A DNA stretch of 64,000 bases from a virus, in the IMG/VR virus record IMGVR_UViG_3300033550_000002, positions 1 to 64,000 of that record; one strand, 5' to 3'. The notes under the pieces are model-generated. The model saw only the letters and a program-made list of their open reading frames with translations. It was not told the DNA's origin and did not search any database. Shown here piece after piece: positions 54,509-58,325 of this stretch; the first letter of the stretch is position 1, and each line of letters begins with the position of its first letter. The position numbers and the translations under genes were made by a program.

Positions 54509-56083
54509 TCAGGTGAGCCACGGCCACTTCTCGTCGTACCCGGCCTCCAGCGCGAGCACCTGGGCGAAGACCTGGTCGGTCAGTCCGCCGAACTCGTACC
54601 AGCCCTTCAGGCGGGTGTCGATCACGGTCGAGGCGTACCCGACCGGACTGACGCCGTAGAGCTTCACGCCGTCCGGCACCGGCAGGCTCCCGACGCGGCA
54701 CTGCATGTCCGAGATCACGAACACGCGGTCGTGGCCGTCGAGACGGTTGCGGATCGCGCCCGAGATGTTCGTGCCGTGGCCGACCTCACCGGTCCGCTGG
54801 ACGAAGTCGCGGGCCGCCGACAGGACGCCCTGGCCCGGCTTCACGTTGTGCCGGAACTCGCTGTCCGCGAAGCCGAACAGGTCCACCCGGCCCTGGTTGC
54901 GCTGGGCCAGCGTGACGCCGAAGATCGAGGCGACCTCCGACATCATGACCGTCGACTTCTGCGACATCTTCGTGTAGGTCATCGACGCCGAGGTGTCGAT
55001 GAGCACGAGCGTGCGGCCCGGCAGCTCCGGGACGGACTTCAGCGAGCTGTTGATCGCGTCGTCCAGGGCCTGCTTCCAGCGGTCGCTCGGGGCCTCGCGG
55101 TACGCCGTGTAGAACCGGAACGGGAACTGACGGCTCTTCGCCACCTCGGCCGGGTCGGCCAGCCGGTCGGCCAGCGCGCGCGCCCGCTTCGGGTCGATAC
55201 CTGCCTCGTCCATGTTCCGCAGGTTCCGCAGCGCGGCCATGTACGGCAGGTGCGGGGCCATGGCGTCCCAGACCTTCTTCGCGCCGACGCGCGCCTTCAG
55301 GTCCGAGACCGCGTTCTCCCACGTGATGCCCGCATCCGTGAAGGCGGAGCCGTCGGCGAGGGACGCGAGCTTGCGCTGGTCGTCCAGGCCGTACCAGCGC
55401 TTGCGGGCCGCGATCATCGGGACCGTCGAGATGTCGCCGTCGCCGTGGTGCCGCTCGTCGAGCAGGTACTTGAACAGGGCACCCTGCCAGTCGCCTTCAC
55501 CGCGCTCGGTGCGCGGCTTCGGGTGGACCAGCTCCAGCACGTCCGCGAAGCGCAGGCCGCGCGCGTCGGAGTCCCACTTCAGCACGTTCCGCTCGGTGAA
55601 GAGGCGGCGGATCGCCATCCCCAGACCGGCGCGGACCGCGTTCGGGAGCGCCCGGCCGAAGGTGAGCTGCCAGTACGCCAGGAACTCGGTGATCTCCTCA
55701 CCCCGCTGGATCACGGAGTCGATCAGCTCGGCGTTGCCGTCGTGCTGGCCCGCCTTGAGCCGGGCGCTGACCGCGTGCGCCGCCCCGGTCAGGGAAGCGG
55801 TGCGGATGTTCGCGTCCGAGCGCAGCCAGCGCAGCAGGCCGCGCAGCCACTCCCAGTCGCCGACCGCGTGCAGCTCCACGAGGTTGTTGTAGCGGGCGTC
55901 GCGGCTGGTGCCCTTCTCATGGAAGGTGTCCTGGCCGACGAGGTTCACGGCCGCGAGGCTGTACAGCTCGCCGCGCAGGCCGTGCCCGAAGGCCGGGGCT
56001 CCCTGGTGGTTCACCGTCGCGCCCTTGACGACGTCCTTCGGGCGTCCGGTCGCCCGGACACCTGCGTTGTTGAAGCGTGCCAT
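54509..56083 (-). CDS. rsr: TROVE-domain RNA-binding protein (Ro60/Rsr ortholog)
   Basis: 'MARFN', 'EL..LAAVNLVGQDTFHE', 'PYMAALRNLRN', 'KSRQFPFRFY.AY', vWA MIDAS 'LIDTSASM', 'GHGT', 'ISDMQ'. Confidence 0.93.
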   Translation of the reverse strand: MARFNNAGVRATGRPKDVVKGATVNHQGAPAFGHGLRGELYSLAAVNLVGQDTFHEKGTSRDARYNNLVELHAVGDWEWLRGLLRWLRSDANIRTASLTGAAHAVSARLKAGQHDGNAELIDSVIQRGEEITEFLAYWQLTFGRALPNAVRAGLGMAIRRLFTERNVLKWDSDARGLRFADVLELVHPKPRTERGEGDWQGALFKYLLDERHHGDGDISTVPMIAARKRWYGLDDQRKLASLADGSAFTDAGITWENAVSDLKARVGAKKVWDAMAPHLPYMAALRNLRNMDEAGIDPKRARALADRLADPAEVAKSRQFPFRFYTAYREAPSDRWKQALDDAINSSLKSVPELPGRTLVLIDTSASMTYTKMSQKSTVMMSEVASIFGVTLAQRNQGRVDLFGFADSEFRHNVKPGQGVLSAARDFVQRTGEVGHGTNISGAIRNRLDGHDRVFVISDMQCRVGSLPVPDGVKLYGVSPVGYASTVIDTRLKGWYEFGGLTDQVFAQVLALEAGYDEKWPWLT

Positions 56084-56098
56084 GGAACTTCTCCTCTC

Positions 56099-56860
56099 TC
56101 AGCCGATGTTCATGGTTCGCCGGTAGTCGGCGAAGCGGGCCTTGCGGATGACCGATCGGTCGGCGCTCCGGAAGACGATGCCTTCCGGCGAGCCGTGCCC
56201 CTTCTCGTCGAGTGCGACGCGGGTCTGGGGCAGGGTGTTGCTCAGGAACCGGTGGGTCCCGAAGTGGGTCTCGGGCATCTCGTAGCCCATCACGGTGCAC
56301 AGGTGCGGCACGCGCGGGATGCCGGTCAGGCGGCTGACGTCGTCGAGCTGTTCGACCGACAGGAAGGTCTGGCCGCCGTTCTCACGCCACCGGGAGATCG
56401 TTTCCCGGTCCCACTCGAAGGGCTGGGTGCCCTCCGTCAGGACGTCGAACATGCGGTGGCCGCGCGATCCGCTGCCCGTGTACTGCTTCGCCTGGCCGCC
56501 GATCTTCGAGCCGTAGACCTCCAGGTACACCGCGACCACGCCGAGTTCCGGGGACAGCTCCGAGATCTGGCACAGGCTCTCCGCGACGGGGCGCAGCTCG
56601 GTGACGATGTCGTGGCTGACGCCGGTCGACGGGACCACCCGGTCACCCTTCGCGTGCAGCAGCTCCTCGCGGGAGCCGATGAAGTAGTCACCGCCGGGGA
56701 GCAGGACGATGCGGCCGTTCGTGCCGTCGACCTTCTCGTAGCCGAACACCTCTCCGGTGAACGGTGTCACCTTGTCGGTGAGCCGACCCTTCTCGCCGAG
56801 GACGTGGTAGGTCTCGATCGATGGGTACTTCGTGACGGAGTTCAGGATTTCCAGGTTCAC
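56099..56860 (-). CDS. ATP-dependent RNA ligase (Rnl2-like nucleotidyltransferase)
   Basis: 'KYPSI', motif I 'EKVDGTN', 'GSR', 'EVYG', 'FDV', 'EGIVFR', 'K.R'. Confidence 0.88.
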   Translation of the reverse strand: MNLEILNSVTKYPSIETYHVLGEKGRLTDKVTPFTGEVFGYEKVDGTNGRIVLLPGGDYFIGSREELLHAKGDRVVPSTGVSHDIVTELRPVAESLCQISELSPELGVVAVYLEVYGSKIGGQAKQYTGSGSRGHRMFDVLTEGTQPFEWDRETISRWRENGGQTFLSVEQLDDVSRLTGIPRVPHLCTVMGYEMPETHFGTHRFLSNTLPQTRVALDEKGHGSPEGIVFRSADRSVIRKARFADYRRTMNIG

Positions 56861-56879
56861 GGTTCTCTCCTTTTCCGGG

Positions 56880-56910
56880 AAAACAAAAACCCCCTCCGAC
56901 TGGAGGGGGC
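56880..56910 (-). terminator. intrinsic terminator after the Y RNA array
   Basis: GCCCCCTCC-AGTC-GGAGGGGGT followed by TTTTGTTTT on - strand. Confidence 0.8.
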
Positions 56911-56916
56911 GCGATA

Positions 56917-57078
56917 TGCACAGACGTACCGGCCGGTTCACCAGAGCAACTGCGGTTTTTGGAGACCATTGCTCTACCAATTGAGCTACCCAGCTTTTCA
57001 AGGCCGGGACTGGAATTGAACCAGCAACCCACGGTTTGAAGTAACCGCCGTCTTCGCACCGGCCGGTGCGTCCGTGCA
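56917..57078 (-). ncRNA. YrlA-type Y RNA, unit 1 (permuted tRNA-Trp-like domain)
   Basis: paired ends; GGUGCGA...UACUUC / GGUGAACC scaffold; T arm GCUGG-UUCAAUU-CCAGU precedes a loop-closed acceptor stem and D arm GCUC-AAUUGGUA-GAGC; adjacent to the ligase-TROVE operon. Confidence 0.85.
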
Positions 57079-57080
57079 CA

Positions 57081-57252
57081 TCACAGGAATCCTGGAGCCG
57101 CCTGGTTCACCGAGATCGCGACGGGGAACGTTGCGCGTGCTGCCAATTACACTACCGGGCTTTCGCCTTCGCCTGGACTTGAACCGGACTACGCCCTCCT
57201 GAAGGGGAAGTATCCGTCACTGTCGCACCAGACGACACCAGGATTCCTGTGA
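57081..57252 (-). ncRNA. YrlA-type Y RNA, unit 2
   Basis: 15-bp terminal stem; same scaffold; T loop UUCAAGU, GGC-GAAA-GCC closed acceptor mimic, D arm GUGU-AAUUGGCA-GCAC. Confidence 0.8.
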
Positions 57253-57255
57253 ATT

Positions 57256-57333
57256 GCGCCCCCCGGTTCACCGGAACGACTGCGGAGAGTTTCATTACCA
57301 GTGAAGTATCCGCTGTCTTCGCACCGGGGGTGC
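57256..57333 (-). ncRNA. minimal Y RNA, unit 3 (scaffold + anticodon-like stem-loop only)
   Basis: GCACCCCCGGUGCGAAGACAGCGGAUACUUCACUGGUAAUGAA...CCGCAGUC...GGUGAACCGGGGGGCGC. Confidence 0.72.
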
Positions 57334-57340
57334 AGGAAAA

Positions 57341-57370
57341 ACATTACGGGATGCTGCGACGAGGTCGCAA
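57341..57370 (-). promoter_or_regulatory. sigma70/HrdB-type promoter for the Y RNA array
   Basis: TTGCGA-N18-TAATGT; predicted start coincides with the 5' G of unit 3. Confidence 0.7.
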
Positions 57371-57375
57371 CTCCT

Positions 57376-57849
57376 TTACGCGTAGACCGCGCAGAGCAGC
57401 CAGGAGGCCGTCGTCTGCTGCGGGGTCATCTCCAGCCGCTCCAGCGCCCGGCTCAGCCTGCCCTCCGCGAGGAGGTACTGCGCCGGGGTGAACGTGAGCG
57501 GGTCGATGGCCTGGGGAACGGTGCCGGAAGCCTTGAAGGTCATGCCGGAGGCGACCAGGGAGATGTGCGTGTACTCCAGGTGCCCGGTCCAGCAGATGTC
57601 GATGCCGAGGTGCTTCGCCATGAGCGCGGACAGCGAGTACTCGGCGGAGTCGATCTCCTCCTGGCTCACGTTGCCCGCGCGCAGGAGCCGCCTGCGCATC
57701 TCGTTCTCGTAGTCCGACTCGATGTCGGCCATCCAGTGGCCGTCGAGAAGGCTGCCGTACTCGTCGACCTCGTCGACCTTCCAGGAGCCCTCGTCGGGAC
57801 AGCCCAGGTAGAACCCGTACGCGAGGCGCGCACTCGACCCCATCGGCAT
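57376..57849 (-). CDS. hypothetical protein
   Basis: 157 aa; 'MG.S.ARLAYGF.LG', 'WLLCA.Y'. Confidence 0.6.
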   Translation of the reverse strand: MPMGSSARLAYGFYLGCPDEGSWKVDEVDEYGSLLDGHWMADIESDYENEMRRRLLRAGNVSQEEIDSAEYSLSALMAKHLGIDICWTGHLEYTHISLVASGMTFKASGTVPQAIDPLTFTPAQYLLAEGRLSRALERLEMTPQQTTASWLLCAVYA

Positions 57850-58027: not shown

Positions 58028-58145
58028 TGTACACGATGGGATTCGAACCCACGGACCGCACGGAATCACCAGTTCCGCCCGGTCGCCTGCCCCTGTCGCT
58101 GGGACGACTTCAGCAGGCACCCTTTGGCCACTCGGGCACGTGTAC
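58028..58145 (-). tRNA. atypical class II (Leu-like) tRNA with 24-nt anticodon loop and long variable arm
   Basis: 7-bp acceptor GUACACG/CGUGUAC, discriminator A, D arm CCC-GAGUGGCCAAA-GGG, T arm GUGGG-UUCGAAU-CCCAU. Confidence 0.7.
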
Positions 58146-58254
58146 TGCCGGACCTCGAACGGTTACCGGCCCAGATTCCGCCTACGGGGGTCAATGTGGC
58201 CATACGGCTCATCTACGCGGAATCAAGGAGGCTCTTCTGCCACCCCCACCTCAG

Positions 58255-58325
58255 AACCTGTGACGGGATTTGAACCCGCGCCGCCGACACCCTCACGTCG
58301 GAGTGCTGCGCTACACCACACAGGC
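58255..58325 (-). tRNA. tRNA-like gene with 8-nt anticodon loop and no D-loop GG
   Basis: GCCUGUG/CACAGGU acceptor; CCGAC-GUGAGGGU-GUCGG; GCGGG-UUCAAAU-CCCGU. Confidence 0.65.

Follow-up and report, generated by a model that had tools for sequence, protein, structure and literature searches.

Hairpin Y RNAs without a tRNA-like domain have been described from S. Typhimurium (YrlB), M. smegmatis (YrlB) and D. radiodurans (Yrn2), and the Y RNAs of M. smegmatis are cut from one precursor (PMC4201824). In the larger RNA YrlA, a conserved YUAY sequence opens a stem-loop termed 'V' (Chen et al., PMC4201824), which was published as a variable arm; the paper on the structure of YrlA states that this RNA 'lacks the anticodon loop'. 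A CGAA motif has been tied to Ro binding (PMC4201824, PMC12135203). For the Thermus phage phiLo, binding of the phage RNAs by Ro was established by gel shift and cryo-EM, together with recruitment of the host PNPase, and tRNA-like or anticodon features are nowhere mentioned in that paper (PMC12135203). For the half of a bacterial Y RNA that does not bind Ro, the published view is mimicry of the tRNA elbow, with no anticodon loop.

The window analysed here, a stretch of 64,000 nucleotides, is part of a 79.7-kb IMG/VR virus record. Judged by its sequence, the record is that of a Streptomyces phage carrying a hairpin Y RNA beside a Ro protein gene. Its closest named relatives are the 185-200-kb Streptomyces phages Satis, Kradal, Quantum and EhyElimayoE, with which it shares 62% identity in the Ro protein (annotated in Satis as 'Ro-like RNA binding protein') and 76% identity in the DNA of the Y array; JustBecause, Kela and Frankenweenie are more remote kin. 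The locus lies on the minus strand in the order promoter-like element, 78-nt unit, unit 2, unit 1, terminator-like hairpin, RNA ligase gene and Ro60 gene (Table 1). The Ro60 gene begins 1.2 kb downstream of the 78-nt unit on the same strand, within the few kilobases expected of a Y RNA.

Table 1. Features of the Y RNA locus, with coordinates in the window.
Feature	Coordinates	Strand	Basis or remarks
Promoter-like element	57341..57370	-	-35 TTGCGA (57370-57365), 18-nt spacer, -10 TAATGT (57346-57341)
Hairpin-type Y RNA, 78 nt, first of three-unit array	57256..57333	-	Fold and match to covariance model R2
UGCGAAG, CGAA-type motif in bulged lower stem, presumed Ro-binding region	57317..57323	-	Motif likeness
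AUACUUC, local form of the [A/U]UACUUC motif ahead of the apical hairpin	57303..57309	-	Likeness to published YUAY of YrlA
Apical hairpin UUCA-CUGGUAA-UGAA	57291..57305	-	Helix 57305-57302 with 57294-57291; loop 57301-57295
Y RNA unit 2	57081..57252	-	~170 nt; same scaffold, hairpin after UACUUC, T-like and D-like arms
Y RNA unit 1	56917..57078	-	~160 nt; YrlA-like, permuted tRNA-like domain
Intrinsic terminator-like hairpin closing the Y array	56889..56910	-	9 pairs, 7 of them G-C, then T run TTTTTGTTTT
RNA ligase gene (257 aa)	56099..56872	-	Pfam PF09414, E 1e-10; PHROG 548, RNA ligase
Ro60 orthologue (TROVE and vWA, 524 aa)	54509..56083	-	Pfam PF05731, E 5.4e-17; PHROG 850, E 4.5e-40

An earlier note, made by a model from the letters of the window, had described the first unit as a 78-nt RNA with the apex UUCA/CUGGUAA/UGAA, built on the scaffold of units 1 and 2 and devoid of D and T arms. 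The sequence, its position on the minus strand and its apex are as described, and the unit folds as one hairpin (-33.8 kcal/mol, z = -2.84), only 2 of 200 shuffled sequences folding as well. The common scaffold was likewise borne out: over 26 nt of its 5' arm the unit shares 92% identity with unit 1, and each of the three units contains the motifs GGUGCGAAG, GG(A/U)UACUUC and GGUGAACC. Inside 57256-57333 the tRNA and YrlA models of Rfam gave no match even at E <= 10 and ARAGORN called nothing; we conclude that the unit has neither a T nor a D arm, and it does not present the T-like, acceptor-like and D-like arms that form the tRNA elbow of RF02553.

The triplet GGU of the apical loop occupies 57299-57297. 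The loop, CUGGUAA, has the seven nucleotides of an anticodon loop, with a pyrimidine at position 32, U33 and a purine at 37. Its helix has four pairs (U-A, U-A, C-G, A-U) followed by a C.A mismatch and is thereby shorter than the 5-bp stem of an anticodon arm; in relatives there are 4-6 pairs. With pair probabilities of 0.49-0.57, and a free energy in isolation of ~0 kcal/mol, the apical helix is only marginally stable. Lower in the stem, GGUGCG(N)AG is invariant in alignment A5, although the UGCGAAG of the 78-nt unit falls outside the strict pattern G.CGAA.?G (published as GNCGAAN0-1G). All Y units that we examined, in phage and genome loci alike and including the three of the window, have [A/U]UACUUC ahead of the tip.

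The promoter-like element ends 7-8 nt ahead of position 57333. The arrangement TTGCG(A/G)-spacer-TA(A/G/C)T(G/C)T is kept in all related phage subclades (Satis, JustBecause, Frankenweenie, L052, L054, L037, L063-L065); a scan of the window for the sigma-70 consensus did not call a promoter, and the element is put forward from its conservation only. A transcription start near 57333 is plausible because the element is conserved in three phage subclades. A scan of viral contigs with the promoter pattern returned mostly chance matches, the only relatives among them being loci L011, L029, L037 and L044. The spacer carries an inverted repeat, GCGAC...GTCGC; in the more general form GCGA(N)...TCGC it covers 57347-57370 (minus strand), overlaps the -35 hexamer and the spacer, and is kept in all subclades. 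It could be an operator.

Unit 2 follows after a gap of 3-6 nt. It has a long basal stem, CACAGGAAUCCUGG / CCAGGAUUCCUGUG, and is kept in Satis and in L063-L065. The Rfam YrlA family RF02553 matches unit 1 at 56943-57051, with a score of 40.8 bits (E 4.4e-7) that does not reach the gathering threshold of 69. The region of unit 1 from D arm to anticodon, ~40-46 nt, is 87-95% identical to the tRNA-Trp genes of 33 mycobacteriophages, which fits an earlier reading of a permuted tRNA-Trp inside this unit. The terminator-like hairpin is kept in relatives.

The array as a whole (promoter-like element, minimal unit, two composite units and terminator) is kept in Satis, JustBecause and Frankenweenie, in ten uncultivated relatives (L011, L029, L037, L044, L051-L056) and in L063-L065, and an orthologous first unit is present in all relatives of the window. 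Near-identical copies of the array (window 56880-57400) occur in soil, plant, groundwater and invertebrate-gut metagenomes from 10 studies, so that the phage lineage is evidently widespread; among the public runs that hold the array sequence there was no RNA run. The RNA ligase gene is found in JustBecause, L044, L051 and L063 and is missing from Satis and Frankenweenie, which retain the array; a functional tie between the ligase gene and the anticodon-like unit was accordingly dropped. NCBIfam gave no match for the ligase, the Ro protein or a 157-aa upstream open reading frame.

Further Ro loci, more than 900 candidate stretches, were gathered with an alignment as query; a single Ro protein used as query had returned no related loci. 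The layout is standard in most of them (L057-L142): in the region about 190-260 nt upstream of Ro, a hairpin Y unit of ~70-76 nt is followed by a composite unit of ~135-140 nt that abuts the Ro gene.

The gathered loci and the surroundings of the array in the window contain other RNA genes. In several actinophages Ro is located within a large cluster of tRNA genes. At 58254-58325 (minus strand) the window has a tRNA gene with an 8-nt anticodon loop, to which ARAGORN assigns the 4-base anticodon 'gagg' (Rfam tRNA, 43.9 bits); the homologous position is annotated as tRNA-His in Satis and as tRNA-OTHER in JustBecause and Frankenweenie. A tRNA-like stretch of ~118 nt with a good T arm, at ~58028-58145 (minus strand), is called by neither ARAGORN nor Rfam. 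Matches to manA RNA (RF01745) that stay below the gathering score of 55.2 lie between tRNA-Lys genes downstream of Ro in two Streptomyces phages, BRock (L060:4579-4742, 49.7 bits) and Alone3 (L062:4467-4699, 47.8 bits).

In order to place the 78-nt unit, we used a covariance model (R2) of 35 hairpin units drawn from actinomycete genome assemblies (20) and distant IMG/VR contigs (15), with the window's own clade excluded. The structure of the model was written by hand; RNAalifold applied to MAFFT alignments gave the basal stem only. In the window R2 matched 57259-57331 with 51.3 bits (E 1.7e-9) over model positions 1-73 of 73, and on the strength of this full-length match we regard the 78-nt unit as a member of a widespread family of hairpin Y RNAs, ~70-80 nt in length, in actinomycete genomes and their phages; the model's match to the scaffold of unit 2 was weak (57107-57235, E 0.1). 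The search recovered 141 units in 93 sources. Of the 141, 74 are of hairpin length; typically there is one such unit, immediately followed by the final composite unit ahead of Ro.

[quoted passage not shown] In A6, the pairing figures of which lean towards structure because the alignment was fitted to the model, 91.2% of cells pair, compared with 76.7% in shuffles and 38-53% for slid partners, and 12 pairs are changed on both sides. Folding gives a concordant picture, in that 34 of 36 minimal units form single hairpins, with 23 different yet complementary basal helices. Compensation extends to the apical stem, where UUCA/UGAA is replaced by UUCUU/AGGAA and the closing pair is A-U in 27 units and U-A in 21. 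In the Satis subclade the apex register is thermodynamically ambiguous, since for Satis-type units RNAalifold chose UUCU-GCAAA-AGGA and not UUCUU-CUGCAAA-AGGAA. Together, the conserved array, the R2 match, the covariation and the independent single-hairpin folds place the 78-nt unit, by context, architecture and homology, in the Ro-linked class of Y RNAs, with Ro binding presumed.

A 7-nt loop with U at its second position and a purine at its sixth is not rare by chance, and the likeness of CUGGUAA to an anticodon loop therefore called for a comparative test. We surveyed 135 non-redundant phage and IMG/VR units for hairpins starting at UUC whose stem has 4 bp or more and whose loop has 7 nt. 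Such hairpins were present in 69 of the 135 units, compared with 22.6 +/- 4.1 in shuffled sequences, and seven was the commonest loop length. Among these 69 loops, 54 have C or U at position 32, 53 have U at 33, 55 have a purine at 37 and 48 have A at 38; positions 34-36 hold 0.09, 0.00 and 0.16 bits. Loops of the exact form CU-NNN-AA occur in 30 units, where 0.06 +/- 0.25 are expected from 500 shuffles, an enrichment of ~500-fold. The profile matches that of the real tRNAs in these loci (n = 104; C32 72%, U33 92%, A37 77%, A38 74%, CU-NNN-AA 58%). Actinomycete genome assemblies gave an equivalent result: 79 of 144 units have such a hairpin, with U33 in 64 of the 79 and CU-NNN-AA in 28.

The composite units provide a second line of comparison. 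There a 4-6-nt spacer (mode 5, often AGGUC or UGGUU) separates the hairpin from a T arm, which gives these units the layout that a class-I tRNA has from position 27 on. Such units are labelled as tRNAs both by ARAGORN and in deposited genomes (JustBecause gene 137, VanLee gene 125, Alone3 gene 36). Because of the loop profile, the composite geometry and these tRNA calls, we take the hairpin for an anticodon arm and not for a variable arm, a choice to which the topology of the minimal unit is neutral.

Four phage genes that carry UACUUC and sit in Y units are deposited as tRNAs: JustBecause 137 (tRNA-Cys), Frankenweenie 148 (tRNA-Pro), VanLee 125 (tRNA-Arg(tct)) and Alone3 36 (tRNA-Ser(gct)). 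The Y RNA sites annotated 'tRNA' are L002:1835-1905, L003:2745-2835, L057:2204-2275 and L062:2274-2347. From the motif and their setting, these genes are probably Y RNA modules and not decoding tRNAs, which flags a routine mis-annotation.

Anticodon-like tips are confined to a part of the hairpin family. Among 71 distinct hairpin-length matches, 18 have a strict anticodon-like tip and four more have one behind the variant UUCCUUC, together ~30%; the remaining ~70% end in 3-6-nt loops or in loops of the AUUUGGC type. An anticodon-like tip is thus not required for a hairpin Y RNA. Where such a hairpin is the sole cargo, the lineages are independent: besides the window (CUGGUAA) they include the Satis group, L063-L065, the Gordonia phage VanLee and L099 (all CUGCAAA), L082 (CUGCUAA), L095 (CUCGCAA), L109 (CUCGAAA), L126 (CUCGUAA), L136 (CUUCCAU), Actinomadura L156 (CUGGUAA, the loop of the window), Planotetraspora L160 and L174 (CUCCAAA), Actinokineospora L176 (CUGUAAA) and Streptomyces L219 (CUCUCAA). 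As the same design is found in actinomycete genome assemblies, which may contain prophages, its distribution indicates that the anticodon tip is a property of the actinomycete Ro/Y system and not a phage invention.

There is a second recurrent tip, UUC(A)-A(A/U)UUGGC-(U)GAA, with the variants AUCUGGC, AUUAUGG and AUUUGC and a shared UUGG core. It is found in the first units of JustBecause-type phages (L002:1730-1808 and others) and in L122, L099, L059 and L058, and may be a different effector module.

If the tip mimics one particular tRNA, its triplet should be conserved; if it mimics the loop in general, the frame alone should be. The orthologous units distinguish between these patterns. In Satis, Kradal, Quantum, EhyElimayoE and L063-L065 the loop of the first unit is CUGCAAA (triplet GCA), and a near-identical metagenomic genome (X17 contig) differs from the window at 57298 (C>T on the plus strand), giving CUGAUAA, a change at position 35 that turns the triplet into GAU. 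In JustBecause, Frankenweenie and their clade, the first unit has a 6-nt loop or one of the form AU-NNN-GC. The window's own clade keeps the frame but not the triplet, which is GGU, GAU or GCA. Across near-identical contigs from four public metagenome runs there is one variant site in the 78-nt unit, compared with five in unit 2 and up to nine in unit 1.

To quantify this variation, units were clustered at >=80% identity regardless of loop, and the minimum number of changes per site was counted in the 13 clusters with at least one canonical loop. The counts were 22 of 39 at positions 34-36, 6 of 52 at positions 32, 33, 37 and 38, and 216 of 832 in the other columns. Fisher tests on the change counts gave p 6.8e-6 and 1.3e-4, and for the flanks against the other columns p 0.02. 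By position there were nine changes each at 34 and 35, four at 36, three at 37, none at 38, one at 33 and two at 32, so that in close relatives the triplet changes ~5 times as often as the flanks of the loop. The smaller number of changes at 32, 33, 37 and 38 than at the triplet or elsewhere argues that the loop frame is under purifying selection and that positions 34 and 35 are free. We do not claim diversifying selection on the triplet, because the least constrained columns nearby change at a rate that positions 34-35 do not clearly exceed; the fast change at 34-35 may be plain lack of constraint.

Taken together, these data bear on what the 78-nt unit might do. We consider it probable that the unit is a hairpin-type Y RNA the tip of which copies the frame of an anticodon arm and presents a generic anticodon-loop shape to a protein. 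A transcript would probably extend from the promoter-like element as far as the terminator, with this unit as its first product and the two tRNA-like Y RNAs behind it. By homology, the lower stem with its bulged UGCGAAG is the presumed binding site for the ring of the phage Ro60 protein, and the upper part would consist of AUACUUC followed by a small hairpin in the anticodon-arm frame, with its 7-nt loop, C32, U33, A37 and A38. Published Y RNA biology suggests a division of labour, with Ro bound by the lower stem and a second factor contacted by the upper module. Such a factor would read the generic shape of the loop, namely the U33 turn, the A37-A38 platform and perhaps position 36; candidates are an enzyme modifying position 37 or positions 38-40, a nuclease acting on anticodon loops, or some other protein that binds tRNA. 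The RNA could then act either as a tether of this partner to Ro or as a sponge or decoy that occupies it. In phages a role in conflict is plausible because tRNA-directed defences and phage tRNA countermeasures are established (PMC10264068, PMC11555353), although the presence of the design in actinomycete genome assemblies means that a phage counter-defence decoy is not the sole natural reading.

A broader proposal is that the Ro60 RNPs of actinomycetes and their phages are programmable baits, sensors or sponges, with an anticodon arm as cargo, either alone or inside a complete permuted tRNA, that is directed at anticodon nucleases (of defence systems or toxins) or at enzymes modifying position 37; positions 34-35 would be diversifying under selection and phages would have taken the system over for infection. 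We regard this as speculative and, in its entirety, rather doubtful.

The principal alternative to a generic anticodon-loop display is that the tip merely closes the hairpin, its likeness to an anticodon loop being a relic of tRNA-derived composite units or chance, and that the RNA works only by way of the stem that binds Ro, for instance as a gate to the Ro cavity. Small-loop hairpin Y RNAs are indeed known, most hairpin units have tips that are not anticodon-like, the JustBecause-clade orthologue has AU-NNN-GC or 6-nt loops, the apical helix is marginal and the triplet is unconstrained. A tip without a role of its own is, however, difficult to reconcile with the low number of changes in the frame relative to average columns, with the compensated changes in the stem, and with the recurrence of the exact CU-NNN-AA loop, so far above shuffled expectation, in many deeply diverged lineages that have the anticodon hairpin only. 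We therefore think this explanation unlikely, while granting it serious weight. Still less can be said for the view that the element is a structured 5' leader of the Y precursor, protecting the 5' end or guiding processing and discarded on maturation. Its position at the presumed transcription start, a few nucleotides from unit 2, would suit a leader, as would the single precursor of M. smegmatis Y RNAs; yet the element is a complete Y scaffold with both UGCGAAG and UACUUC, the hairpin units of the family are mostly mid-array elsewhere (for example at ~2240-2310, just before the last unit), and among near-identical genomes it is the most conserved of the three units. We find this reading barely credible.

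The earlier note had gone further and taken CUGGUAA as a Thr(GGU) anticodon loop, from which follows the view of a Ro-tethered decoy specific to tRNA-Thr(GGU), drawing off Thr-directed anticodon nucleases or t6A enzymes during infection. The loop is of the canonical Thr(GGU) type (a real phage tRNA-Thr(GGU) has UUGGUAA), an RNA ligase gene is adjacent, U36-A37 tends to persist in clusters, and the tRNA-targeting defences cited above supply a context. Against such specificity stand the GCA of the Satis-type phages and L063-L065, the GAU of the near-identical genome, the occurrence of the same design in actinomycete genome assemblies and the lack of the ligase gene in Satis and Frankenweenie despite their arrays. 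With positions 34 and 35 free and the frame conserved, the match to Thr(GGU) is best seen as incidental, and we hold a Thr-specific decoy to be very improbable. What survives of the note is the displayed anticodon loop, which has a profile far beyond chance in many lineages. Its remark that it knew of no described Y RNA of this form is qualified by the published hairpin Y RNAs (YrlB, Yrn2) and the 'V' stem-loop; our searches of the full-text literature found no description of anticodon-loop display by Y RNAs. The 78-nt unit is an ordinary member of a widespread subclass that has apparently not been described before.

The generic anticodon-loop shape is of interest for the question of what Y RNAs contact beyond Ro. 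In statistical terms, the hairpin behind YUAY looks like a real anticodon loop in a large set of Y RNAs from actinomycetes and phages, and it is the sole cargo of ~30% of the hairpin-type RNAs. The distinction between frame and triplet offers an easily mutated handle on the partner protein, which could show whether Ro particles connect to tRNA modification, to tRNA damage or to anticodon-directed nucleases; the recurrent pairing of Ro with an RNA ligase already hints at such a link to tRNA.

Among known systems, the tRNAs that phages deploy against tRNA-targeting defences resemble the 78-nt unit in that anticodon loops are encoded by a phage in a conflict over anticodon-loop cleavage; those tRNAs, however, are complete, decode and replace cleaved host tRNAs, whereas the 78-nt unit, lacking acceptor, D and T arms, is unable to decode. 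The operator of the E. coli thrS mRNA is a free-standing, anticodon-like 7-nt hairpin that ThrRS binds as it does the anticodon arm of a tRNA. It requires the Thr anticodon letters, whereas the triplet of the 78-nt unit is not conserved. Thermus phage phiLo shares a phage Ro60, small Y-like RNAs (Yrl1 and Yrl2) upstream of it and a CGAA motif in a bulge, but its Ro protein is only 24.5% identical to that of the window. YrlB and Yrn2 are similar in lying next to Ro60 beside a tRNA-like Y RNA, in forming a long hairpin from their 5' and 3' ends and, outside the strict pattern in the case of UGCGAAG, in having a CGAA-type motif near the 5' end; as described, they are set apart by a small pyrimidine-rich loop in place of the 7-nt loop in the anticodon frame, and YrlB of M. 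smegmatis has a possible T arm, which the 78-nt unit does not. YrlA (RF02553) shares the type of locus and the scaffold, and its YUAY stands ahead of a less conserved hairpin upstream of the T arm, much as AUACUUC stands ahead of the tip in the 78-nt unit; it differs in having T, D and acceptor-like arms. Compared with the 'V' hairpin of YrlA, that of the actinomycete and phage units has the profile of an anticodon loop and, in composite units, a tRNA-like variable loop of 4-6 nt. [quoted passage not shown]
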